Source: an uncultured Clostridium sp.
GTDB lineage: Bacteria; Bacillota; Clostridia; TANB77; CAG-508
DNA length: 64,000 nucleotides
Direction: 5' to 3'
Assembly: GCA_947244325.1 (NCBI GenBank)
Contig: CAMXJY010000001.1
Coordinates: 171,322-235,321 of the forward strand
Positions 12,278-30,764 of the stretch are shown piece after piece (within the stretch, counting starts at the first letter, position 1; every line of letters starts with the position of its first letter). A program made the translations under genes and the position numbers. The notes below the pieces were generated by a model. The model saw only the letters and a list, made by a program, of their open reading frames with translations, was not told the origin of the DNA and ran no database searches.

Positions 12278-15200
12278 TTATTTAAGATTACCAATTGTAG
12301 TTGATTCTACATTGTTTTCTGATACTTCAAATACTATTGTTACACTTGTAGAATCTGCTGCTACTTGTATTGTAGCACCTGTTCCATTTAATCCAAATGA
12401 ATCTAAGTATGCTCTTACTTCTTCGATGTTATCTTCTGTAACACCTGTTTCATTTAATAAGTCTTCATCAGAAATATCAACATTTACATCTAATGCAACT
12501 GGTGCTGCTTCTTTTGCAGTTACACTAACTGTTGAAGAAGCGCCTTTATTTACAGCTATTGATTTATCTCCTGATAAGTAAGAATCATCTATATCAACTG
12601 TTGCATCACCTTTTTGTACTTCTACATCTAAGTTTCCTGTTACAGCAACATTATTAGATGTTACAGCAACTGTTCCACCATTTGATAATATTGTAACTTT
12701 TCCTACTTGTCTGTCTGTTCCATTGTTGTTTGTATCAACGAATGCTATTGTCATAGCTTGATTTTCTTTATTTTCAAATGTATAATCTGTTTTTGAATCT
12801 CCATTAACAGCTATTGTTAATGTTGTGTCATTAACATTCATTGTTGCATCTTTAGTTGGTGTTACTTTTGTTCCGTTAACTGTAGCTGTTGTGTTAGCTA
12901 ATATTGTTGCATCATATGCAGCTGTACCACTAACTCTTACACCATTTCCTACTACTACTTCTTCAGGAGTACCTTCTACTCTAAATATAGAATTATTTCC
13001 TGTTAAAGTAACTTTTCCTGATGCGGCATTAACTATTCTATCAAAAGATGCTGTTCCTTCGATTTCAACTTCTGTATCTCCAATATCTCCTAATGTTACA
13101 GTTGTATCTGTAGCATTACCTGCATTTGTAGAGATACCAAATAATTTTAAAGTTATTTTTTCAGCTGTTGCTAATTTTACAACATCTTGTGGATATAATT
13201 TCATACCTGCAACTAATTCAACTAAAGATACGAATTCTGGTGTATATTCAGCATCTTTACCATTTGAAAAGTCATATGTTGCACCTTTGATTATTGCAAC
13301 TCCATTATCATAATAGAATGTATTTCCAACAGCTTCTTTTTCATCATTAACTATTGTTACATTGTTGATTGTTACTGATGCACGTTTTGTTCTAACATCA
13401 TAAGCTTTTCCTATATAATCTGATTCTCCTGTTATTCCATCTACTGTAGCTATTAATTTGAAAGCATATTCTGTAAAGTTATCTAATCCATCTATTACAG
13501 CTTCATTATCTTTGTTAACTTTTAAATCTCTTGTACCTACTTCAACAAATTTCTTTCTAGTTCCTCCACCGTTAACATCTTCTACTTTTTCTGTAACAGC
13601 TTTATAAACTTCTACTTTGTATGTAGGAACTTTATCATTTATTTTAATTTCATCTAAAGTAAATGTTATAGAATTTTCACCTTCTACTTTTTTAGTCATA
13701 TCTGGATCTACTACAAAGAATTCTTTTTCATCAGAAACTTCTGAATTTATAATTGGTCCATTATTTTCTTTTGCAATTACTTTTACTGTAGCTGTATAAA
13801 CTTTATTTGGAAGAATAGTAATACTTGGCTCATTAGCAAGTGAACATTTTGTTGGTAATACATTATTTACTCTTGCTATTTCTACTGTATTTCCTACTTT
13901 TATTCCATCTTCATCAAATATTTCAACTTCGTATTTTTCTATATCTTCTACTTTATTAGAATTTTCCCAAGATACTACATATTCTGTAGCACTTGTTGTA
14001 TCATTGTATTCTACATCAAATGCAACTTTTGTAGCTTCTTTTAAAGCTTTAACTTCAACAACAGCTGATTCAACTGTTTCTGAAGCATATGTTGAACCAT
14101 CATCTTTTCCTTCAACTGTAACTTCTATTTTATATTTTCCTGGTGTAGCTAGCATTATATCTGAAAAATCTACTTTTTCTACATCATCTGTTCCATCTTC
14201 TAATACAACTTCTTTAACTATTTTATCATTGTTATATAAAACAACTTTAACTTTTTTATCAGTTGTTTCTTCTAAAGTCCATTCAAATCCATTTTTATCT
14301 GCTGCTTTAAATGTAGGAACAACTATATCTTTTATAGCTTTTTCTTCTTCAACGTTACCATTTTCTTTAGAAATAACATATTTTTGAGGTGTAACTGTTA
14401 CACTTCCAAAATTGTTTTCTATTACATAATATAAATCATATGCTTTAGCAGTCTCTAAGTCACTAGCAACTACATAATTTTTTAATTCATTGTTAGCCAT
14501 GCTAACTGGTTTTGTTTCTAAAAGATCTGTTTGTGTTGGAGCTGCGCTTCCTTGAGCAACTACTTTATAGTAAACATTTTTAGCTGTTCCTTCACCATAA
14601 TATGTGAAAGATGCATTTGCTCTATCAGCATCAATACGTTTTGTTGATACACTTACTTTATCTGGATTTACTACATTTTTTACTAAAGTTCCTGCACCTA
14701 CAACATCTTTACCATCTTTTAATTCAAAAGATAAATTTCCATCAACTAAACTACTTAAATCTTCATCTTCTATAGTAATTAATTTTGATGTATTAGCAGG
14801 TACTGATACAGTTACTGTTACTGTATTAGCAGGGCTTGCTGAATCTTTAATTACTAAACTTAAATTTTTAGCTGTTTTTATTTCTTCTTTAAGACTTACA
14901 TCTATTTTAGATTTTGAAGCATTCATATTATTTACCATATCGTTTTCATTAACTGTAACTGTATAGTTATAGTTATCAACTGGTGGTATTACAACTTCTT
15001 CATCTGGCATTGAATCTACTACTGTATCTTTCATTCCAACAGCATATTGTTTTACTCTTAAAGAATCTCCAGCTGTATATTTTCCATCTCTTGCATCTAC
15101 ATCAGACGCAACTGTTAATAAATTATCAAAAGTTTCTAATCCAACATTACGTTTTTCAATTAATAAAGCATCTTCACCATTTACTGCTCCATCTTTACTA

Positions 15201-15517
15201 ACATCTCCATATACTAAAACTGTATATGTTTTTCCATTTACTTTAAAAGTATCTCCTGTAGCAACTTTGCTTTCATCACTTATGCTATCAACTTTAGCAT
15301 TTGGATATACAGCTTTTATTTCTTCAAAAGTTACTGTATCATCTTTACCATGTAATATAACTGGTACTACATTTGTTACATCACTAACTAATTTGTTATA
15401 TGGTGTTTTAGCAATTTCTGTTTCTATTTCAGCTGCTAAAGTTTTTGTATTAAAAACATTTAATGTTAAAATACCAGCTAAAGCAAGGCTAGAAACTATT
15501 TTAATTTTTTTGTTCAT
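12278..15517 (-). CDS. large secreted surface protein with an N-proximal dockerin-like module and many Ig-like/beta-sandwich repeats
   Basis: 1079 aa with a signal peptide. Residues ~100-165 show a duplicated Ca-binding dockerin pattern (DVSKDGAVNGEDALLIEKRNVG / DVDARDGKYTAGDSLRVKQYAVG). The remainder is Thr/Val/Asn-rich beta-strand repeats. No LPXTG. Confidence 0.6.
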   Translation of the reverse strand: MNKKIKIVSSLALAGILTLNVFNTKTLAAEIETEIAKTPYNKLVSDVTNVVPVILHGKDDTVTFEEIKAVYPNAKVDSISDESKVATGDTFKVNGKTYTVLVYGDVSKDGAVNGEDALLIEKRNVGLETFDNLLTVASDVDARDGKYTAGDSLRVKQYAVGMKDTVVDSMPDEEVVIPPVDNYNYTVTVNENDMVNNMNASKSKIDVSLKEEIKTAKNLSLVIKDSASPANTVTVTVSVPANTSKLITIEDEDLSSLVDGNLSFELKDGKDVVGAGTLVKNVVNPDKVSVSTKRIDADRANASFTYYGEGTAKNVYYKVVAQGSAAPTQTDLLETKPVSMANNELKNYVVASDLETAKAYDLYYVIENNFGSVTVTPQKYVISKENGNVEEEKAIKDIVVPTFKAADKNGFEWTLEETTDKKVKVVLYNNDKIVKEVVLEDGTDDVEKVDFSDIMLATPGKYKIEVTVEGKDDGSTYASETVESAVVEVKALKEATKVAFDVEYNDTTSATEYVVSWENSNKVEDIEKYEVEIFDEDGIKVGNTVEIARVNNVLPTKCSLANEPSITILPNKVYTATVKVIAKENNGPIINSEVSDEKEFFVVDPDMTKKVEGENSITFTLDEIKINDKVPTYKVEVYKAVTEKVEDVNGGGTRKKFVEVGTRDLKVNKDNEAVIDGLDNFTEYAFKLIATVDGITGESDYIGKAYDVRTKRASVTINNVTIVNDEKEAVGNTFYYDNGVAIIKGATYDFSNGKDAEYTPEFVSLVELVAGMKLYPQDVVKLATAEKITLKLFGISTNAGNATDTTVTLGDIGDTEVEIEGTASFDRIVNAASGKVTLTGNNSIFRVEGTPEEVVVGNGVRVSGTAAYDATILANTTATVNGTKVTPTKDATMNVNDTTLTIAVNGDSKTDYTFENKENQAMTIAFVDTNNNGTDRQVGKVTILSNGGTVAVTSNNVAVTGNLDVEVQKGDATVDIDDSYLSGDKSIAVNKGASSTVSVTAKEAAPVALDVNVDISDEDLLNETGVTEDNIEEVRAYLDSFGLNGTGATIQVAADSTSVTIVFEVSENNVESTTIGNLK

Positions 15518-15587
15518 TATAAATTTTCCCCCTAAAATTTAAAATTTATATTATCTATAATTAAATTTTTAAAATAATTGCAAAAAA

Positions 15588-16307
15588 TTATTTATTGTTT
15601 AATTTGATTGTTCCGATAGCTGCTGCTACTATTGCTAATGCTATAACAGCTACTATTGCATAATTAACACCTGTTTGAGGTAATCTTGTAGGCATTCCAT
15701 TTGCTGCTACTGGAGCTGGGTTAGCTGTTGCTACTGGAGCAGGATTAGCTACTGGAGCTGATGGTGTTGTTGTTCCATTTCCATTATCTGGTGTTGTTGC
15801 TCCGTTTCCATTTGATGATGATCCATTTCCATCTTCTGGTGTTACTGGTGTTGGATCTACTGGTGTAGGATCTACTGGTGTTGGATCTACTGGTGGCTTA
15901 ACTTCTTCAGCTTTTTTAGTTACTTCTACTGAACCATTAAATGTTCCTACTGCAGTTGCATCTACTGAACTTGTTACATTTACTGCAACGGCTGATGTTC
16001 CTTCTGCTTTAGCTGTAAAGTTAAATGTTAAAGTTTTTAATCCTCCAATTTTAGACATAGAGAAATTAATTGTTCCTGGTGTTGGTTCAAAAGTTACTTC
16101 TGGTCCACTTACAAAAGTTAAAACTTCTGGATCATATGTAACTGTTCCATCAGCGCTTTCTGCACTTCCAAAATCTACAGTTACTGCTACTGCTTTTCCT
16201 ACTTCTTCTTTAACGCTTGATACTGTTGCTGCGTTTACGTTTGTTGTAGCTGCTGCTAATACTACAAGAGCAACTACGATTGTTAAAAATAATTTTTTCA
16301 TTTTCAT
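15588..16307 (-). CDS. sortase-anchored (LPQTG) surface protein with an N-terminal cohesin-like domain and a Pro/Thr linker
   Basis: 239 aa with a signal peptide and a ~100-aa beta-sandwich with a cohesin-like VTVDFGSA...TYDPEVLTFVSG pattern. Has PVDPT x3 and PAPVA repeats, then LPQTG + hydrophobic helix + KLNNK tail. Confidence 0.65.
   Translation of the reverse strand: MKMKKLFLTIVVALVVLAAATTNVNAATVSSVKEEVGKAVAVTVDFGSAESADGTVTYDPEVLTFVSGPEVTFEPTPGTINFSMSKIGGLKTLTFNFTAKAEGTSAVAVNVTSSVDATAVGTFNGSVEVTKKAEEVKPPVDPTPVDPTPVDPTPVTPEDGNGSSSNGNGATTPDNGNGTTTPSAPVANPAPVATANPAPVAANGMPTRLPQTGVNYAIVAVIALAIVAAAIGTIKLNNK
15853..15897 (-). repeat. 3 x 15-nt tandem repeat encoding the (PVDPT)n linker
   Basis: ggatctactggtgt(t/a) repeated three times inside the LPQTG protein gene. 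Confidence 0.7.
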
Positions 16308-16366
16308 TTTTAAAAATTCCTTTCTTATTTATATATTTCTTTTTTAATATCTAAATTTAGTTTTAT

Positions 16367-17017
16367 CTATATTTCGCGTGCTTTACATATAAGCCTTGTT
16401 ACTCCTCCAGGATTACATGTAATTAAAGTAACCTCTCTCACTTCTTCTTCAGGTGGATATAAACATTTTATATCATCTGGATTACAAGTATAAATATCAT
16501 ATATTTTATATGTAACTTTTGTTTGGGTTTCTTTGTTGATTAAATCAAATGTGTCTCCTACTTCTAATTCCTTTAATCTTTTAAGTAAATTTTTGTAGTT
16601 ATGACCTGTTATACAAAAGTTTCCAATCTCGTTTATATCTCCTCCGTAGAATTTAGTTACTGATAAATTTAATGAAGCATCATCCGTTTTTTCCAGAATA
16701 TTCTTTTTGACATCAATTTTATCAATTACTAATTCACCAATTACTTTGTAATTTCCCATTTTATTTGGTAATTCACTTACATCTACTTTTTCTAATTCTT
16801 TAACAGTATTTGTTTCAGTTATTGGCTCGTCTACTATAGTATTTGTTTCATCTGTATTTGTTGGTATGTACTCGTTATTTTTTTTACAATTCAACCAAAT
16901 GCATATTCCTACAATTACTATAATAGCTACAAGAATTAATATCGGGATTAAAAACTTATTTTTATTTGATTTTTCTTCTGCAAATCTTTTTCCCTTGTGA
17001 CTAGGCTGCTTTTCCAT
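16367..17017 (-). CDS. sortase (class B/D-type), membrane anchored
   Basis: 216 aa with an N-terminal TM, a catalytic TLITC motif, and a His region (CITGHNY). Immediately upstream of the LPQTG substrate gene. Confidence 0.75.
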   Translation of the reverse strand: MEKQPSHKGKRFAEEKSNKNKFLIPILILVAIIVIVGICIWLNCKKNNEYIPTNTDETNTIVDEPITETNTVKELEKVDVSELPNKMGNYKVIGELVIDKIDVKKNILEKTDDASLNLSVTKFYGGDINEIGNFCITGHNYKNLLKRLKELEVGDTFDLINKETQTKVTYKIYDIYTCNPDDIKCLYPPEEEVREVTLITCNPGGVTRLICKAREI

Positions 17018-17293
17018 TTGAAATTATAGATTTCACCTCCTCTAGATACCTTTGTTTAAAGACACTTAAAAGCATCTTTAACCTATTTCAAGTTAACTCT
17101 TTAATTATTCTAATCTAAAACAGGTTAAAAGTCAATAAGTAATTTAAAATATTTTAAAATTATTGTAATAATCCTTTTAATTCGTTTTTGATTAAGTTTA
17201 TTGTTTAATTTTTTTTAATACTAATAGCTTATTTTATTTTTACTTATATTTTAAAAAAAATTTTAAACAATAACAAAAAAGGAGGTAATTATT

Positions 17294-17519
17294 ATTTTTA
17301 ATAACAGGTATCCGAGAATTCGTTCGCTACGTGAAGATCATGATTTAACTCAAAAAGAAATAGCCAAAATCCTTAATATGTCACAAACTGGCTATTCAAA
17401 ATATGAAACTGGTGAAAACGATATTCCTTCAAAAATTTTAATCGAACTAGCAAAATATTATAAAACTTCAGTTGATTATTTGTTAGGTATTACAGATGAA
17501 ATTAAACCTTACCCATAAT
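17294..17519 (+). CDS. XRE-family helix-turn-helix transcriptional regulator (small, about 74 aa); start codon non-canonical (ATT?) or mutated
   Basis: Frame encodes ..RYPRIRSLREDHDLTQKEIAKILNMSQTGYSKYETGENDIPSKILIELAKYYKTSVDYLLGITDEIKPYP*, a typical Clostridial HTH_XRE protein. A strong GGAGG RBS sits at 17281-17285 but there is no ATG/GTG/TTG in frame, hence the ORF track missed it. Confidence 0.55.
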
Positions 17520-17553
17520 CTCCTTGACTTTTTATTTATTTTAACATCAAAAA

Positions 17554-17582
17554 AACTGGTAATTTTAATTACCAGTTTTTTA
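17554..17582 (+). terminator. rho-independent terminator AACTGGTAAT-tttaa-TTACCAGTT + T6
   Basis: 9-bp stem followed by TTTTTT, 35 nt after the XRE stop. Confidence 0.75.
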
Positions 17583-17601
17583 TATTCATATTATTATATT
17601 T

Positions 17602-17628
17602 TAGACAAAACCTCGGTCCCCATGTCTA
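17602..17628. repeat. palindromic element copy A: TAGACAAAACCTCGGTCCCCATGTCTA (overlaps the stop of the downstream minus gene)
   Basis: 6-bp stem + 15-nt loop. The loop is the reverse complement, with 1 mismatch, of the copy at 24125-24151. Confidence 0.6.
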
Positions 17629-18162
17629 TTTTTTATCATCAAAATTTATAAATTTACTTACGAATCCAACTATAGCGGTTGAATTTTGTTTTGCTATTTC
17701 TTTTGTTACTGCTTTTCCTCCAACTGTAAGTGATGCTACTATAGCACTAAATACAAATTGTATTTGTGAACTCATTCCATAATTTTCTGTAAGCTTTAAT
17801 GCAATCATTGCACTTATTGCTCCACTAAGTACTCCACATATATCTCCTATTACATCTGCACAAAAATTTGATACTTTTGCAGAATTTCTTATCATTTTTA
17901 TAGAAGTTTTTGCTCCTTTTATTTTTTTACTTGCTTGTGCATGAAAATCTTCTTCATTTGCTACTGTAACTGCTACACCTATTAAATCAAATAAAACACC
18001 TACTAAAATTACTAATATTAAAACTATTACTCCTAATATTATATTTAATTTTGAAATTGCTGTATTTGATATATATGAAAATAGCAATGATAGAATAAAA
18101 GTGGTAATAGCTATTCCTATTACCCAACTATTGTTATTATTTTTTTTCGATTTTTCTTTCAT
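17626..18162 (-). CDS. membrane protein with a nucleoside-recognition (Gate) domain, SpmB-like
   Basis: 178 aa with 2 N-terminal TM helices. C-terminal SGAISAMIALKLTENYG resembles the SpmB/Gate-domain SGAAALGVTAELIKTYG. Assignment tentative. Confidence 0.4.
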   Translation of the reverse strand: MKEKSKKNNNNSWVIGIAITTFILSLLFSYISNTAISKLNIILGVIVLILVILVGVLFDLIGVAVTVANEEDFHAQASKKIKGAKTSIKMIRNSAKVSNFCADVIGDICGVLSGAISAMIALKLTENYGMSSQIQFVFSAIVASLTVGGKAVTKEIAKQNSTAIVGFVSKFINFDDKK

Positions 18163-18439
18163 AGTATTCTTTATAATTAATTCTCCTTATTTTACATATA
18201 TTAATTTGATTCTTATTTTTTAGAAAATTTAAGTTTAAAAATTTTCTAAAAAATAATGAATGATTTTTACTATATAACATTTATAACTTTTTAATATAGA
18301 ACAAATCTGAAAAAATCTCAGATTATTTCAGTAAATTTGTTCGTGTGCCAAATTTATGCAATAAATTTGTGTACAATTTTTAGCGAAGCTTTTATATAAT
18401 AGGAAAGTATCACTTTCCTATTATAAAATAAATTATAAT

Positions 18440-19010
18440 TGGTAGGAACTTAAGTAAACTTTACGGTTTAGGTCTAGCAGATTTTCTCTATTTTTCACTT
18501 TCTATTACTAGAAAGCCGTTTCCGTTTAAGAAAAATACCCCTCATGCGAGGTCGCCAGATCACCACTTAAATCCGTACCTTAATCCTTAAATTCCCATGC
18601 TTATAATTTTAAGCAAACACTCTAGAAATTTTCTTTGAGTATCCTTGCCTGCTATTAGTCTTTTTTGCAACAAAAGTTTCATAATCAAATATAAAAAAGA
18701 TATGGCCGATATCTAAATTATATTTAAACGATTAATCCCCAGTTATCACTCAAGACAGTCATTACCACTACATAACAGATTGCTATATAGGTTTACCTAT
18801 TCAAATGAATAAGTCTCAACGAAAACAGGAATCATCTGTATGCCATTACAGGCTATCCTAATTTCTTTACTCTTCAGGACCACGCAAAACTGGGCGTAAT
18901 GCGCAGACTCTTGAAAAACTTCGACTGATAATACTTTCTAGTAGATTTTTAGGCCCACCCTCATAACAGGAGTGATACACTAGAATAATGCACCAATGCG
19001 ATATATTATA
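18440..19010. ncRNA. candidate large structured non-coding RNA (unclassified); ORF-free, locally GC-rich (~40-45% against a ~25% background)
   Basis: The 1066-nt gap between genes (18163-19228) has no ORF >=60 aa. The core has CG-containing, non-repetitive, GC-enriched stretches (gcgaggtcgccagatcaccac, ccacgcaaaactgggcgtaatgcgcagactc, aggcccaccctcataacaggagtg) typical of structured RNAs in AT-rich Firmicutes. Confidence 0.3.
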
Positions 19011-19228
19011 TCAGTTTGATATTTTTTTAGCAAATCTTTTGCCAACTTCTTTTAAAATGAATTTGCATTTTGCACTTATCAAAAATTAATTTATCTCTTT
19101 GATTCTCTTTTTTTCTTTCTTATACTATATAATTCTTGTTGTAAGATTTTTTAATATTCTAAAAAAAATTAGGCTAAAATAAAGTTGTTTCTATGGAAAA
19201 TGTTATTTATGCTTTTTTATATTTTATT

Positions 19229-22200
19229 CTATTCTACACTTTTTAATGATTCTATCATATCTACCTTTTTTAAAGAAAAATATGTTATAAAATTAACTAC
19301 AAATGTAAATATAATTGTTATTAAACATGCATATAAATAACTTTGTGGTAAAATTACTCTTTTAAATCTTAATATTCCTATTTCACAAGTTCCTAATATA
19401 AACGAATTTAAAATATATCCAGCTACTAATCCAAACACAATTCCTATTGCTGTTAAAACAACAATTTCTCTTGTTACATAATCATATACTTCTTTATCAT
19501 AAAATCCTAAAACTTTTATTGTTGCAAGCTCTCTAATTCTTTCACTTATATTTATATTAGATAAATTGTAAAGAACTATAAAAGCTAAAACTCCTGCTGA
19601 TACTATTAATACATATACAACTAAATTCATAGCACTTAAAGTATCATCCATTATTTGTACAAGATAACTTGTTAATGTTATTGATGCTATTTTAGAATCT
19701 TTTAAAATCTTTTCTGATAATTCATATTCTTTATTTTCATCTATTTTTTCTGTGTATTTTGTTAACAATACATTAGTAGATACTTTTTCTTTAAATAAAT
19801 GTTCATACATATTCTTTGTCATATAGACATAATGTGATATGTAATGTTCTGTTATTCCACCAACTTTTACTTTATATTCATTTTCATCTGAATCACTTAA
19901 GATAATCTCATCTCCTACTTTTACATTTATTAATTGAGATAATTTATCTGTTATTATTACTTCGTTATCATTTAAGTTTAATTTTTCTCCTGTTTTTAAG
20001 TCTTTTAATCTAATAACTTTATCTAAATCTTCTTTACTTTCTGCTACTAATATTTGTGCCTCTTCTTCTAAATCTCCATTTTTTATATCATCAGATGTTA
20101 AATAAATTTCTGTACAACTTTCTATTAGATCTTCACTTTCTAAATTTTCTTTTAAAGCACTAATTTCTTCTTTTGTTAATGTATTTTTTAGTCCTATAAG
20201 CATATCATAATTATAAATATCTAAATATTGATAATCCATTATCTTGGAAATTGAATCTTTTAATCCAAATCCTGCAACTATTAATGCTGTACAACCACAT
20301 ATTCCTACTACTGTCATTAAAAATCTTTTCTTATATCTAAACATATTTCTAGCTGTAACTTTTTGTGTAAAATTAAATCTGTTCCATATAAAAGGTATTT
20401 TTTCAATTAATACTCTTTTTCCTGCTTTTGGAGCTTTTGGTCTCATCATTTCAGCTGGTGTACTTATAAGTTCTTTATTTGCTGTATATATTGTTGCTCC
20501 AACAATACATATTGACATTATTGCAACACCCATTACTGTATAATATCTATTAAGTTCTATTACCATTTCAGATATATCATACATCATCTGATACATCGAT
20601 ATTATTATTCTTGGAAAAAATTCAAGTCCAAATATTGCACCTAATATTCCTCCTATTAATGAAGCAAGTAAAGAATAAATTATATACTTAGACATTATTT
20701 GTATTTTATTATATCCTAAAGCTTTTAAAGTTCCTATTTGTACTCTTTCTTCTTCAACCATTCTAGACATTGTTGTTAAACTTATTAATGTTGCAATTAT
20801 AAAAAATACTATTGGAAATGCTTCTCCTAATTTTTCTACATTTCCTGTATCTTGTGTATAACTACTAAATCCAGAATTATCATCTCTACTAAAAATATAC
20901 CATTTAGCATTTTCAATATCATTTACTTTTTCTCTTGCATCTATAAGTTTTCCTTCTGCATCTGCTATCTTTTCATTAAATTCTTGTTTTTTATCTAATA
21001 ATTCTTGCTGGCCTTCTGCTAATTTATTTTTTGCATCTTGAATTTCTTTTTTACCTTTTGCAATTTCTTTTTCTGCATCAGTAAACTTTTGTGCAGTTTC
21101 ATTTCTTTTTTGTGCAAGTGTTGCTTTTGATTCTGCAAGCTGATTATATCCAACCGCTATTTGATTTTGTCCTGATACTAATTTATTTTCAGCATCGCTT
21201 AACTCTTTTTGAATTTGATTTAATTGCACTTCCAACGCTGATTTTTGATTTTGACATTCTAAAATTCCTGCATTTATTTGGTTTAATTTTTCACTCGTCA
21301 TTCCATAGTTTTCTAATTCTTGCTTTTCTGCATTCATACTCGCTATTTGAGTTTTTACATATTCTATTGCAGATACAAGCTCACTTGTATCTCCTTCTGC
21401 TGTCTCTAATTCTTTTTGATATCCTGCAAGTGTATTATTTAGCATTACTAATGTTTCATCTATTTTACTAATTGTAGATAATACATTTTCAACTAATGCC
21501 TTGCTTTCTTGTAGTTCATTAATTTTTGAATCTAATGTATTTATTCCTGTTTGTAATTGTGATATTCCTGCTTCTGCTTCTTGTTTTTTTGCAGATAAAA
21601 GTGCATTTCCATCATTTATTTCTGTTTGTGACATTGCAAGTTTAGTTTCAGCTTCTGAAATTTGAGCTTCTGCATTTGCAAATTCTACTTCTGCTGTTTC
21701 TTTTCCATCTGCTAATTCTTTTTCTGCATTCTTTATCTCTTTTTCACCTTTTGCTATATCATTTTTTCCATCTGCAATTTCTTTTTCTGCATCTTGGATT
21801 TTCTTTTCTCCATCTGCTTTTTGCTGATTAAATTCTTTTTCTGCATCATCTAATTTCTGATTTGCTTCTGATATTAATTCATTATATCTAGCATTTTGTC
21901 TTTCTTCTTTTATTGACTCTAAATTATTTTCTACTTTTGATATTAATTCATCATATTCATCACTTATTGCATTATAATTTTTGCTATTTTCTGCTATAAT
22001 ATCTATTCCAGTATATATATCAGATACAATATTATTTTTATTTACATACATATAATATGTAACTTTTCCTGAGCCAAGTGTTGTAGTTCCTCTATCTCTT
22101 GATATATATAATGGACTTTTTACTATACCAACCACTTTTAATTTTGTATTTTTAAATGAGCTCTCTTCATCTTCAGTTAAGTTTTCTCTAATTTCTATAT

Positions 22201-22633
22201 AATCACCTATGCTGATTCCGTGTTTCATACTTGTTTCTATAACACATTCATCTTCATTTTGTGGAAGTTTTCCTTCTATAAGTTCTAGTTCATTAATCTC
22301 ATTTTCAAGAGCATATGCTTTTACAACAACCTCTTCATCATCTACAGTAACAAATACATCTTCACTATATGTTCCTATAGCTTTTTCTACTCCATCTACT
22401 TTTGAAATAGCATCAATATCATCATCTGTAAGTCCTAATGTTGAAACAACATTAATATCATATACATTGTATTTATCTAAATATGTATCTAATGTTATTT
22501 TCATATCAGGACTTGTTGCTCTTACACCCGCAAAAAAGCCTACCCCCATAAATGCCATAAGCAATATGGAGATAAACCTTTTATTTGTTTTCTTAATTTG
22601 TTTTATACTATCTTTTAATAAAGCTTTTTTCAT
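19229..22633 (-). CDS. FtsX-like ABC transporter permease (MacB/YxdM-type, two FtsX domains) with a ~380-aa coiled-coil extracellular insert; no cognate ATPase adjacent
   Basis: 1134 aa with an N-terminal TM, a long heptad-repeat region (..KEIADGKNDIAKGEKEIKNAEKELADGK..), then two 4-TM FtsX permease modules (..LGYNKIQIMSKYII.., ..KVLGFYDKEVYDYV..). Confidence 0.8.
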   Translation of the reverse strand: MKKALLKDSIKQIKKTNKRFISILLMAFMGVGFFAGVRATSPDMKITLDTYLDKYNVYDINVVSTLGLTDDDIDAISKVDGVEKAIGTYSEDVFVTVDDEEVVVKAYALENEINELELIEGKLPQNEDECVIETSMKHGISIGDYIEIRENLTEDEESSFKNTKLKVVGIVKSPLYISRDRGTTTLGSGKVTYYMYVNKNNIVSDIYTGIDIIAENSKNYNAISDEYDELISKVENNLESIKEERQNARYNELISEANQKLDDAEKEFNQQKADGEKKIQDAEKEIADGKNDIAKGEKEIKNAEKELADGKETAEVEFANAEAQISEAETKLAMSQTEINDGNALLSAKKQEAEAGISQLQTGINTLDSKINELQESKALVENVLSTISKIDETLVMLNNTLAGYQKELETAEGDTSELVSAIEYVKTQIASMNAEKQELENYGMTSEKLNQINAGILECQNQKSALEVQLNQIQKELSDAENKLVSGQNQIAVGYNQLAESKATLAQKRNETAQKFTDAEKEIAKGKKEIQDAKNKLAEGQQELLDKKQEFNEKIADAEGKLIDAREKVNDIENAKWYIFSRDDNSGFSSYTQDTGNVEKLGEAFPIVFFIIATLISLTTMSRMVEEERVQIGTLKALGYNKIQIMSKYIIYSLLASLIGGILGAIFGLEFFPRIIISMYQMMYDISEMVIELNRYYTVMGVAIMSICIVGATIYTANKELISTPAEMMRPKAPKAGKRVLIEKIPFIWNRFNFTQKVTARNMFRYKKRFLMTVVGICGCTALIVAGFGLKDSISKIMDYQYLDIYNYDMLIGLKNTLTKEEISALKENLESEDLIESCTEIYLTSDDIKNGDLEEEAQILVAESKEDLDKVIRLKDLKTGEKLNLNDNEVIITDKLSQLINVKVGDEIILSDSDENEYKVKVGGITEHYISHYVYMTKNMYEHLFKEKVSTNVLLTKYTEKIDENKEYELSEKILKDSKIASITLTSYLVQIMDDTLSAMNLVVYVLIVSAGVLAFIVLYNLSNINISERIRELATIKVLGFYDKEVYDYVTREIVVLTAIGIVFGLVAGYILNSFILGTCEIGILRFKRVILPQSYLYACLITIIFTFVVNFITYFSLKKVDMIESLKSVE

Positions 22634-26960: not shown

Positions 26961-28154
26961 TTATTTTGTTACTAATTCATATGTGTCCTTTGCTATTATT
27001 AATTCCTCATTTGTTGGAATTATATATATTTTTACTTTAGAATCTTCTGTTGAAATACATTTTTCTTTTCCTCTTGTTTTATTTGCTTCTAAGTCTAATT
27101 TTACTCCAAATGGTTCTAAATATTTGCAAACTCTTTCTCTTGTTTCAATTCCATTTTCTCCAACTCCACCAGCAAAAGTTAAAACATCTAATCCACCAAG
27201 TGAAACTACATATTGTCCTATATATTGAGCTATCTTATATGCTTGACTTTCAAGTGTAAGTATAGATCTTTGGTCTCCCATGTTGTATCCATCTTCAATA
27301 TCTTTATAGTCTAATGATACTCCAGATACTCCCCATGCTCCTGATTGTTTATTTAATATCTCTTCTATATCTTCTGGTCCAAGATTATCTCTTTTCATAA
27401 TATATGGAATTATTGCTGGATCTATATCTCCACATCTTGTTGCCATAGGAATACCGGCTAGTGGTGTTAATCCCATACTTGTATCAACAGATTTCCCACC
27501 ATCTATTGCACATATTGATGCTCCTTGACCTAAATGACAATTTATTACTTTTAAATTTTCTTTATTTTCTCCTATAAGTTCTGCTACTCTTTGATCTACA
27601 TATCTATGGCTAGTTCCATGAAATCCATATTTACGAATTTTATAACTTGTATAATATCTATATGGTATTTGATATACATATGCTTTTGCTGGCATTGTTT
27701 GATGAAATGCTGTATCAAATACTGCTACCATTGGAACATTTGGAAGAGCATTTCTTGCAGCCTTTATTCCTGCTACTCCCGCTGGATTATGAAGTGGTGC
27801 TAAATCAATACATTTTTCAATCTCACTAATAACTTCATCATTTATTATAACTGACTGGCTAAACATTTCTCCACCATGAACTATTCTGTGTCCTACTGCT
27901 CCTATCTCTTCTAAACTGTTTATTAAATTATATTCAGGTTTTTGTAATACTTCTAAAACAAAGCTTATTGCTTCATCGTAATCTCTAGCAATATGCAATA
28001 ATTCTTCTTTGTTTCCATTTATATTTAATTTAAGTGTTGTTTTCATTCCACCTATTCTTTCAAAATTTCCTTTTGCCATTCTTTCATTTGTATCCATATT
28101 TATAAGTTGAAATTTAAGTGATGAACTTCCACAATTTAAAACTAATATTTTCAT
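26961..28154 (-). CDS. ackA: acetate kinase (copy 1)
   Basis: 397 aa with MKILVLNCGSSSLKFQL and acetate/propionate kinase family motifs. Confidence 0.9.
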   Translation of the reverse strand: MKILVLNCGSSSLKFQLINMDTNERMAKGNFERIGGMKTTLKLNINGNKEELLHIARDYDEAISFVLEVLQKPEYNLINSLEEIGAVGHRIVHGGEMFSQSVIINDEVISEIEKCIDLAPLHNPAGVAGIKAARNALPNVPMVAVFDTAFHQTMPAKAYVYQIPYRYYTSYKIRKYGFHGTSHRYVDQRVAELIGENKENLKVINCHLGQGASICAIDGGKSVDTSMGLTPLAGIPMATRCGDIDPAIIPYIMKRDNLGPEDIEEILNKQSGAWGVSGVSLDYKDIEDGYNMGDQRSILTLESQAYKIAQYIGQYVVSLGGLDVLTFAGGVGENGIETRERVCKYLEPFGVKLDLEANKTRGKEKCISTEDSKVKIYIIPTNEELIIAKDTYELVTK

Positions 28155-28256
28155 AAATTATTTCCTTTCCAAGTTTTATATTATCATACCAATTTTAACA
28201 TTAATTTAATTACTTAACAATAGTAATTTTTCAAAAGAATAGAGCTTTTGTCTAAA

Positions 28257-28287
28257 ACTATTAATTTTAGACAAAAACTCCATACTA
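28257..28287 (-). terminator. terminator hairpin TTTTGTCTAAAA-ctattaat-TTTTAGACAAAA (related to palindromic element A/B)
   Basis: 12-bp perfect stem immediately 3' of ackA copy 2. Shares the TTTTAGACAAAA arm with elements A and B. Confidence 0.55.
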
Positions 28288-28291
28288 ATGC

Positions 28292-29491
28292 CTATTTTCC
28301 TTCTACAATTCTCTTTGTATCTCTTGCTATAACCATTTCTTCATCTGTTGGAATTACAAATGCTGCAATTTTAGAATCATCGGTAGAAATTTTCTTTTCT
28401 TCACTTCTTACATTATTTCTTTCTAAGTCTAACTTTAATCCCATCCATTCTAAGTTTTCACAAATTTTCTTTCTAATGTTTATTTGATTTTCACCTATAC
28501 CACCTGTAAATACAACTGCGTCAATTCCTTTTAATGATACTGCATATTTTGCAACAAATTGAGCTATAATTTTTGTAAATAATTCTATTGCAACTTTAGC
28601 TTTTGGTTTATCATCTTCATATGAAGCAAGTTCTATTTCTCTAAAGTCTGGATTCAATCCTGTTATACCATATAATCCTGATTTTTTATTTAATACAGTT
28701 GTTACTTCTTTAGTAGTTAAATTTTCTCTATCCATTATTTCTGTTACAACAGCTGGGTCTAAATCTCCTGAACGTGTAACCATTGCAATTCCACTTAAAG
28801 GAGAAAGTCCCATTGATGTTTCTATAGATTTTCCACCATCTATAGCACATATTGATGCTCCTTGACCAATATGGCATGTAACCATTTTTATTTCTTCTAT
28901 AGGTTTTTCCATTAATTTTGCACATAATCTTGAAACATATTGATGAGATGTACCATGAAATCCATATTTTCTAATTCCATATTTTTCATAATATTCATAA
29001 GGAATTGGATATAAATAATTTTCTTGTGGGATTGTTTGATGAAATGCTGTATCAAATACACCAACCATAGGAACTCCTGGCATAGCTTTTTGGCAAGCTC
29101 TTATTCCACGTATTGTTGCTGGATTATGAAGTGGTGCAAGTGGTGAACATGAATCATATTTTGCAATTACATCTTCATCTATTCTAACTGATTCACTAAA
29201 TTTTTCTCCACCATGACATAATCTATGTCCTACTGCAGATATTTCTGATAAATCTTTTATTACTCCATAATCATTATGAACTAATTGTTCTAAAACTATT
29301 TTTAAAGCCTCTTCATGATTCATTACAGGAACTTTTGTAACATATTTTTCTCCATTAACTTTATGAGTAACAAAAGCTTCTTGTTCTCCTATTCTTTCAA
29401 AATTTCCTTTTGCTAAAAGTTTTTCACCTTCCATATCTATTAATTGATATTTTAATGATGAACTTCCACAGTTTACTACTAAAATTTTCAT
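28292..29491 (-). CDS. ackA: acetate kinase (copy 2, divergent paralog, ~55% identity to copy 1)
   Basis: 399 aa with MKILVVNCGSSSLKYQL. Same family, clearly diverged. Confidence 0.9.
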   Translation of the reverse strand: MKILVVNCGSSSLKYQLIDMEGEKLLAKGNFERIGEQEAFVTHKVNGEKYVTKVPVMNHEEALKIVLEQLVHNDYGVIKDLSEISAVGHRLCHGGEKFSESVRIDEDVIAKYDSCSPLAPLHNPATIRGIRACQKAMPGVPMVGVFDTAFHQTIPQENYLYPIPYEYYEKYGIRKYGFHGTSHQYVSRLCAKLMEKPIEEIKMVTCHIGQGASICAIDGGKSIETSMGLSPLSGIAMVTRSGDLDPAVVTEIMDRENLTTKEVTTVLNKKSGLYGITGLNPDFREIELASYEDDKPKAKVAIELFTKIIAQFVAKYAVSLKGIDAVVFTGGIGENQINIRKKICENLEWMGLKLDLERNNVRSEEKKISTDDSKIAAFVIPTDEEMVIARDTKRIVEGK

Positions 29492-29672
29492 TTTTTATTC
29501 TTCCTCCATATTTTAAATTTAATTCAAATTATTATTAAGCATTTTAATAAAAAATTAATTCAGAGCAAGTAGTGCTAGGCAAAATTTGAGAAAAATTAAT
29601 GAGCGTACGAATGGTACGTGATTTAATTTTTCGATGATTTTAACGACGCAATACGAAGCTATCAATTAATTT

Positions 29673-30665
29673 TTATTGAGCTTGGACAGCAGTAATAGCC
29701 ACAACCCCCGCAATATCCTCAGCAGAACATCCTCTTGATAAATCATTAACTGGTCTTGCAATACCTTGGCAAAGTGGTCCATATGCTTCTGCCTTTCCTA
29801 ATCTTTGAGTTAATTTATATCCTATATTTCCAGCATTCAAATCTGGGAATATTAATGTATTAGCATTTCCTGCAACATTACTATTGGGAGCTTTACTTTT
29901 TGCTACTTCTGGAACTATTGCTGCATCTAATTGTAATTCTCCATCTACTTTTAATTCTGGGTATTTTTCTTTTATCATGTTAGTTGCATCTATAACTTTT
30001 TGAGTTAATTCTGACTTTGCACTTCCCATTGTAGAATAAGAAAGCATTGCTACTTTTGATTCTTTTCCTACTAATTGTTCAAAGCTTTTACTTGAAGAAT
30101 TAGCTATTTCTACAAGTTCTTCTGAACTAGGATTTTGATTTAATCCACAATCTCCAAAAACAAATACTCCATCTTCTCCATATTCGCATTCTGGTACTAC
30201 CATTAAAAAGAATGCTGATACTAATTTAGTTCCAGGTGCTGTTTTTAAAATTTGAAGTGCTGGTCTTAAAGTATCTGATGTTGAATGAATTGCACCTGAA
30301 ACAAGTCCATCTGCTTCTTCTAATTTTACCATCATCATACCAAAATACACTTCATCTTTTATTAATTCTTCTGCTTTTTCTAAGGTCATACCTTTTTCTT
30401 TTCTAAGTTCATATAATTTCTCTGCATATACTTTACTTTTTTCTGATTTTAAAGGATTTATAATTGTTGCTTTTGAAATATCTAATCCCTCATCATTTGC
30501 CATTTTGTTTATATTTTCTTCATTTCCTATTAGAATTACATCAGCATATCCTTCTTTTAAAACTGTAGCTGTAGCTTTAATTGTTCTAATATCACTAGCT
30601 TCTGGTAATACAATTTTTTTTATGTCTTTTTTTGCTCTTTGTTTTATCGTATCAATAAAGTTCAT
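29673..30665 (-). CDS. pta: phosphate acetyltransferase
   Basis: About 330 aa from the internal Met (MNFIDTIKQRAKK...); the ORF extends 9 codons further upstream. Pta family pattern throughout. Confidence 0.9.
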   Translation of the reverse strand: MNFIDTIKQRAKKDIKKIVLPEASDIRTIKATATVLKEGYADVILIGNEENINKMANDEGLDISKATIINPLKSEKSKVYAEKLYELRKEKGMTLEKAEELIKDEVYFGMMMVKLEEADGLVSGAIHSTSDTLRPALQILKTAPGTKLVSAFFLMVVPECEYGEDGVFVFGDCGLNQNPSSEELVEIANSSSKSFEQLVGKESKVAMLSYSTMGSAKSELTQKVIDATNMIKEKYPELKVDGELQLDAAIVPEVAKSKAPNSNVAGNANTLIFPDLNAGNIGYKLTQRLGKAEAYGPLCQGIARPVNDLSRGCSAEDIAGVVAITAVQAQ

Positions 30666-30764
30666 TATTTTTTCCTCCATAAATCTAATCAAAATAAATT
30701 TATTATTAGCATTTAAAATTAATTAATTCTAATAATATTTTATTAAATAACTTGCTTAAATCAA

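Follow-up and report, generated by a model that had tools for sequence, protein, structure and literature searches.

The gene-free interval and its Rfam match

We analyzed a 64,000-nucleotide (nt) stretch of DNA from an uncultured Clostridium sp. (assembly GCA_947244325.1, contig CAMXJY010000001.1, positions 171,322 to 235,321; hereafter the window), in which a gene-free interval at 18163-19228 very probably carries the gene for an OLE (ornate, large, extremophilic) RNA. On both sides of the interval are minus-strand open reading frames (ORFs), one of 1134 amino acids (aa; 19229-22633) and one of 178 aa (17626-18162). The original prediction, made from the sequence, had reported that neither strand of the interval carries an ORF of ≥60 aa, and our ORF check agrees: the longest ORF touching it on either strand has 51 aa, and the longest lying inside it has 37 aa. 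It had also described a compositionally distinct core at 18440-19010, rich in CpG and free of internal repeats. These claims were borne out, with a GC content of 34.9% in the core against 25.9% in the whole window and 19% in both flanks, 14 CpG dinucleotides (24.6/kb, against 4.7/kb window-wide; observed/expected 0.84 vs. 0.30), and repeats in the interval limited to hairpin arms in the spacer 3′ of the core. The GC content of 40-45% given for the core was, however, too high, since the core stands at 35% and the richest 200-nt window (18800-18999) at 39.5%. No strand had been given; the feature lies on the minus strand.

The whole window was scanned against Rfam 15 with cmscan at the gathering level, and 17000-19400 was scanned permissively (E ≤ 1). 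One match alone in the window reached the gathering level: OLE (RF01071), on the minus strand at 19012-18423, which spans model positions 1-616 of 616 and scores 277.7 bits (gathering score 50; E = 9.8e-78). The match nearly coincides with the predicted core, and OLE had been named first when the core was interpreted as a large structured noncoding RNA and an Rfam scan was suggested as the check. Its GC content (33.9%) is equaled or exceeded in just 1.6% of the 590-nt windows along the 64 kb, and its CpG density (23.8/kb) is reached by 0.5% of them. No gathering-level match to ROOL, GOLLD, HEARO, raiA, group II intron, RNase P, or tmRNA was found in the 64-kb window, and within 17000-19400 no other Rfam family, including any riboswitch, leader, or other RNA family in the ole flanks, appeared even at E ≤ 1. 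We conclude with high confidence that 19012-18423 (minus) encodes an OLE RNA, whose membrane partner OapA is the product of the following gene (18162-17626). The RNA is picked up by a standard Rfam scan, so there is no new kind of element here: the locus belongs to a known, curated family, and earlier work has reported its reduced features in gut clades.

Secondary structure and covariation

Stem names were assigned by mapping the Rfam structure line to the published names through a cryo-electron microscopy (cryo-EM) review (PMC12265935). In that review, P3 closes domain 1, and the dimerization loops are the A-rich loop of P4, the P5.1 and P6.1 loops, which kiss, and the palindromic loop of P9. 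The cmscan alignment agrees with the DNA sequence without a mismatch, and the window OLE retains 143 model pairs, 130 of them canonical.

We collected 80 homologous loci (labeled L001 onward) from one-genome-per-species contigs through an alignment of the OapA family. The suggested covariation analysis with homologous regions was run on 73 sequences (the window OLE and 72 full-length matches), which were aligned by sequence only in MAFFT and onto which the Rfam pairs of the window were projected. Standard pairs filled 84.3% of the cells, against 39.5-46.0% when the 3′ partner was slid by 1-3 columns, and double (compensatory) changes were seen at 120 of the 143 pairs, against 73-90 in the slid controls. 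Two stems that are unannotated in Rfam also covary, namely P1 (RNA positions 17-21 with 570-574) and P3 (36-38 with 371-373); pair 17-574 of P1 is AU in 43 sequences, GC in 14, UA in 8, and GU in 5.

Pairwise comparisons were made within the lineage of the window. Of 40 pairs changed between the window and L007, 29 still pair canonically, a number expected to be 17.4 under the null and attained by 0 of 2000 shuffles; the corresponding figure for L017 is 38 of 49 (0 of 2000 shuffles). Conservation relative to L007 is 0.87 at unpaired positions and 0.74 at paired ones. Furthermore, the identity to L007-L009 is 78-83% in ole and oapA, whereas the intergenic flanks are unalignable. The compensatory changes, the conservation of the loops, and the contrast between alignable genes and unalignable flanks count against a decayed coding gene as well as against a dead RNA relic.

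Conserved loops and protein-contact sites

All dimerization loops are intact in the window when compared across the 73 OLE RNAs (Table 1). According to PMC12265935, OapA binds at two palindromic sequences, in or near P2 and P4a, which are not printed in that review; we take the two CUAG sites, present in every sequence compared, to be these putative OapA-binding palindromes. The kink-turn (k-turn) recognized by OapC is formed from J4a/5 and J5/6 (PMC9723947). In the window, its partner strand after P5 reads UAAAGA, and both the G of the essential C-G pair and the GA-AG step are retained, but the bulge has 4 nt (AGUC).

The contact with OapB differs from that of the full-length type. P13 of the window (ACCUCGCAUGAGGGG) has neither a GNRA loop nor a bulge, so that the mapped OapB site is missing. 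Classical OLE RNAs all have a GNRA-capped P13 of 21-22 nt, and such a P13 is missing in 42 of the 73 sequences, mostly from gut metagenome-assembled genomes (MAGs). The secondary site, P14.1, keeps a GUAA loop.

Table 1 Features of the ole-oapA locus (window coordinates)
Feature	Position	Strand	Basis or remark
OLE RNA gene, Rfam-model bounds	18423..19012	-	RF01071 full-length match
Likely ole transcript core (predicted)	~18997 (start) to 18439 (3′ strand of P1)	-	Promoter and P1
Sigma-70-type promoter of ole (predicted)	19005..19033	-	10/12 matches plus TG
P1 strands	18996-18992 and 18443-18439	-	Covariation
First CUAG palindrome, within UAUUCUAGU	18980..18983	-	Conserved 73/73
Domain 1 (P3 to P9)	18640..18977	-	Rfam structure mapped to published stems
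P3/P3.1	5′ strand 18978-18967, 3′ strand 18651-18639	-	Covariation for P3
P4, A-rich loop CUAAAAAU	18959-18940	-	20 nt, full size
OapC k-turn region (J4a/5)	18919..18928	-	Comparison across 73 OLE RNAs
P5/P5.1, loop ACGCCCAGU	18918-18870	-	49 nt, full size
P6/P6.1, loop UAAUGGCAUA	18865-18821	-	45 nt, full size
P7	18813-18796	-	Truncated, 18 nt
P8	18790-18768	-	23 nt
P9, loop UCGGCCAU	18756-18658	-	99 nt, full size
Domain 2, 3′ part	18444..18636	-	Rfam alignment and element lengths
P10	18636-18626	-	11 nt, full size
Second CUAG	18625-18622	-	Conserved 73/73
P11	18616-18597	-	
P12/P12.1/P12.2 to P15	18596-18444	-	
P13	18552-18538	-	15 nt, CCUC-GCAU-GAGG
P14.1, GUAA cap	18516-18497	-	20 nt, full size
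ole-oapA spacer, 260 nt	18163..18422	-	Strongly structured
oapA, 178 aa	17626..18162	-	Four-helix membrane protein, DxxxD at residues 103-107

The partner gene oapA

The 178-aa ORF is the immediate downstream neighbor of OLE, starting 260 nt downstream of it on the same strand. It matches the Pfam CNNM family (PF01595) below threshold (21.6 bits, cut-off 28.4, E = 1.8e-4), which is exactly what the literature describes for OapA: with the CNNM hidden Markov model, OapA ranked as the cluster next below that of the Mg2+ transporter MpfA (Fernando and Breaker 2024; PMC11332333). The same study reports that OapA has four transmembrane helices and a DxxxD motif missing from CNNM domains, and that its predicted structure best matches CorB (PDB 7M1U). 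An NCBIfam scan of the 178-aa ORF gave no useful match.

An exhaustive HMMER search returned 1114 representatives at E ≤ 1e-3. Among 56 proteins of 35-62% identity, D103, G106, and D107 of the DxxxD motif are invariant, as are D59, S113, G114, K150, and K154. The protein encoded in the window has a Lys/Arg-rich loop at about residues 78-96. The AlphaFold2 model built with the 56-member alignment (predicted local distance difference test 91.5, predicted template modeling score 0.81) has long helices at 11-37, 41-67, 94-128, and 133-159. In a Foldseek search against PDB, MtCorB (7M1T and 7M1U) filled the top four places, and the transmembrane domain of CorC (7CFF/7CFG) was matched with TM-scores of 0.53-0.61. 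The protein thus shares a CorB/CNNM-like fold with the CNNM/DUF21 domains of MpfA, CorB, and CorC, and, like other OapA proteins, differs from CNNM proteins in having the invariant DxxxD together with four long transmembrane helices, in lacking cytosolic CBS or CorC domains, and in its length of only 178 aa. The gene is oapA.

The promoter of ole

Upstream of OLE on the minus strand, a predicted promoter has its -35 box, TTGCTA, at 19033-19028 and its TGn-extended -10 box, TATAAT, at 19010-19005, with 17 nt between them. It sits at the 5′ edge of the Rfam match, with a predicted start at about 18997-18998, 1-2 nt before P1. We compared 73 loci anchored on the conserved GGUGCA; a good promoter was found at the equivalent place in 70 of them, and the end of the -10 box lies 9-11 nt before GGUGCA in 53. 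A predicted dedicated promoter abutting P1 is therefore a family-wide trait among the loci sampled. The 216 nt upstream of OLE, which hold the promoter, showed no significant structure (z = -1.06).

Linkage and occurrence across genomes

An OLE match to the Rfam model lies upstream of the oapA homolog, on the same strand, in 78 of the 80 loci. One remaining locus, L043, has just 189 nt of upstream sequence. The other, L062 (uncultured Bacilli MAG, 1-4492), encodes an OapA homolog of 177 aa with 49% identity, preceded by 234 nt of non-coding DNA, and no OLE was found within 2 kb upstream of it even at E ≤ 1; it is either an orphan oapA or a locus whose ole gene lies elsewhere. Cultured species among the loci are Acetobacterium paludosum, Clostridium subterminale, Fictibacillus gelatini, Alteribacillus, Pseudalkalibacillus salsuginis, and two Bacillus species, and the set also includes many Clostridia- or Clostridium-labeled MAGs sampled from the guts of rabbits, sheep, deer, and humans. 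The protein encoded by the oapA of the window recurs unchanged, in the same gene order, in MAG GCA_948988285.1 and several metagenome contigs. Close relatives are labeled Clostridia or Clostridium MAGs from gut samples, consistent with a host in the Bacillota.

Some loci are unusual in themselves. OLE-oapA loci occur in three MAGs labeled Bacteroidaceae or Muribaculaceae (L057, L067, and L080), probably through binning contamination or transfer, and the literature gives the same explanation for the few OLE matches outside the Bacillota. In L057 and L065 the OLE match ends >1.7 kb upstream of oapA, so that something lies between them. Large insertions are present in some OLE RNAs: L010 (1115-1864) has a P9 region of 208 nt and a whole RNA of 750 nt, L034 (886-1538) has a P9 region of 154 nt, and L042 (1295-1911) has a P13 region of 80 nt.

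Weighing the alternatives

Some observations weigh against the OLE-OapA reading of this locus. Non-canonical pairing occurs at 13 of the model pairs. With full-length matches at homologous loci scoring 224-558 bits, the window OLE ranks low within the family, on account of its AT-rich stems and its truncated P7 and P13. In the k-turn region the consensus UC-GAU-GAAG is replaced by UC-AGUC-GAAG, giving a bulge of 4 nt rather than 3; the AGUC-type change is common to L007 and L008. The usual neighborhood of ole includes isoprenoid, DNA-repair, and nusB/folD genes; it is absent here, the neighbors being an FtsX-family permease and a sortase. Finally, co-transcription of ole and oapA is uncertain in this strain because the 260-nt spacer between them is structured and contains a terminator-like stem.

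The low score, the truncated P7 and P13, the altered k-turn, and the non-canonical pairs might together indicate a non-functional relic, that is, a recognizable RNA pseudogene from which selection has gone in a reduced gut genome. We consider such a relic improbable. None of the four dimerization loops has been lost, nor has either CUAG site; the predicted promoter is strong and undamaged; oapA is undisrupted and keeps every invariant residue; and within the lineage the changed pairs stay paired well above chance. Contigs of different strains are ~99-100% identical over OLE, yet a 187-nt indel separates them in the adjacent spacer. Moreover, dozens of related MAGs carry the same truncations, and a clade-wide reduced form has been published (PMC11332333). 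Much more remote still is a decayed protein-coding gene that is by chance GC-richer than its surroundings, an outcome named in the original prediction as one that would overturn it. The missing ORF and the coding-like GC content would suit such a pseudogene, but we saw no sign of one: the covariance model is matched over its full length (E = 9.8e-78), compensatory changes are far above the controls, the largest internal ORF has 37 aa, and conservation is higher in unpaired loops than in stems, the reverse of a codon-driven pattern. As for a different large noncoding RNA (ROOL, GOLLD, HEARO, raiA, group II intron, or RNase P), the general profile noted in the original prediction is all that speaks for it, and its probability is practically nil given the empty scans reported above, the OLE-specific loops, and the oapA neighbor. 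An OLE RNA paired with OapA thus remains our reading of the locus.

The ole-oapA spacer

The spacer between ole and oapA folds far more stably than its shuffles (minimum free energy -62.2 kcal/mol, z = -7.55). It includes a 14-bp hairpin (arms 18392-18408 / 18412-18428) at the 3′ edge of the OLE match, which it overlaps by 6 nt, a terminator-like stem at ~18298-18330, and an 18-bp AU palindrome (18213-18230 / 18239-18256). About 187 nt of it (~18221-18407) are present in the window, L001, L002, L004, and L005, and absent from L003 and L006, which are otherwise 99%-identical contigs of the same species. In L007 and L009 the whole spacer measures ~21-26 nt. A mobile or repeated element was considered as the source of the 187-nt segment and rejected, BLAST against the window and 86 loci finding orthologous copies only; the segment is single-copy.

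Two further features of the segment are an imperfect direct repeat of 22 nt (18319-18340 and 18349-18370) and, on the minus strand, a promoter-like site (TTGGCA, 18 nt, AATAAT; 18351-18322). The sole good Shine-Dalgarno sequence for oapA, AAGGAG at 18188-18183 (minus), lies 20 nt from the ATG at 18162, the spacing being ~8 nt in L008 and L009. Initiation of oapA translation may be weak or unusual in this strain.

Neighboring genes

Directly downstream of oapA, at 12278-17017 (minus), is a cell-surface cluster that is unlike the housekeeping cluster usually described around ole. Its products are a sortase (216 aa), a protein of 239 aa in which a Pro/Thr-rich linker and a C-terminal membrane anchor accompany a weak cohesin match, and a surface protein of 1079 aa that matches fn3 weakly and has a dockerin-like segment. 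A 608-nt gap (17018-17625), with a stretch of 13% GC at 17100-17299, separates oapA from the sortase gene; it contains a 46-aa plus-strand ORF (17378-17518) that is a called gene in L002 and weakly matches HTH_3 (PF01381). On the other side, at 26961-30692 (minus), are two tandem acetate kinase-like paralogs (397 and 399 aa, both starting MKILV.NCGSSSLK) and then a phosphotransacetylase-like ORF of 339 aa, judged from translations only.

A model of the particle

The following model draws its steps from experiments in Halalkalibacterium halodurans and from Clostridium cryo-EM structures; the window supplies the family, the structure, the promoter, the partner, and the linkage. By analogy, the OLE RNA would fold into two domains and dimerize through the A-rich loop of P4, the P5.1-P6.1 kissing loops, and the palindromic loop of P9. 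OapA, a putative divalent-cation transporter, would bind the RNA at palindromic sequences and hold it at the membrane, and the resulting particle would help the cell to withstand short-chain alcohols, cold, excess Mg2+, poor carbon sources, and similar stresses. The window copy would form a reduced particle, its P7 being a stub and its P13 lacking the GNRA tetraloop and the bulged nucleotide needed for OapB. With these lost, OapB docking at P13 is probably not part of how the particle functions in this organism.

A more speculative extension, which we hold to be unlikely as a whole, is that the particle of the gut lineage is a stripped-down OLE-OapA core without OapB, perhaps with altered OapC recognition, and that the strain-variable, strongly folded 187-nt insert acts as a regulatory element uncoupling the expression of oapA from ole in some strains. 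The regulatory part of this idea draws only on an indel and on predicted folding. The stripped-down core is already foreshadowed by the published work on variant OLE RNAs; the uncoupling insert would be new.

Comparison with full-length and reduced OLE RNAs

Element lengths were measured between columns of the MAFFT alignment. The window OLE has the same architecture over model positions 1-616 as the full-length RNAs of H. halodurans and of C. acetobutylicum and C. botulinum, the latter two known from cryo-EM. It keeps P1, P3-P6, a full-length P9, P10-P12, P14, and P14.1, and shares with them the loops CUAAAAAU, GCCCA, AAUGGCAU, and GGCC, the CUAG palindromes, the promoter directly upstream, and oapA immediately downstream. 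It differs from examples that are high-scoring or come from cultured species in the lengths of P7 (18 nt vs. 27-72 nt, with the one exception of L052 at 14 nt), P8 (23 nt vs. 26-58 nt), and P13 (15 nt vs. 21-22 nt). Unlike the full-length type, it has a GCAU loop on P13 with neither GNRA nor bulge, a k-turn bulge of AGUC instead of GAU, a GC content of 34% against 45-58%, and a different gene neighborhood, and its host is a gut-type anaerobe, not an extremophile. In H. halodurans the genes for OapB (KOW-like) and OapC (YbxF/L7Ae family) are unlinked to ole.

The reduced form known as OLE variant 1 has a shorter P7, P8, and P9 and has lost the OapB site at the tip of P13; it is commonest in the uncultured gut clade TANB77, and its members largely lack OapB and OapC (PMC11332333). 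The window shares three of the four structural traits, with P7 short, P8 slightly short, and the OapB-binding nucleotides at the P13 tip lost, and its host likewise belongs to an uncultured, AT-rich, gut-associated lineage of Clostridia. The fourth trait is absent: P9 measures 99 nt, against 57-68 nt in the short-P9 relatives, L011, L015, L024, and L025 (57-61 nt) among them. Since P9 is unshortened and the other traits of variant 1 are present, the window RNA is intermediate between full-length OLE and variant 1.

The locus is of value in a few small ways, as a natural minimal architecture, for the conserved placement of the promoter, and for its strain-variable structured spacer. As a natural reduced example that keeps all the dimerization contacts and the putative OapA sites of full-length OLE, and that has lost most of P7 and, like variant 1, the OapB site of P13, it supports the view that P7 and that site are dispensable for the core function.
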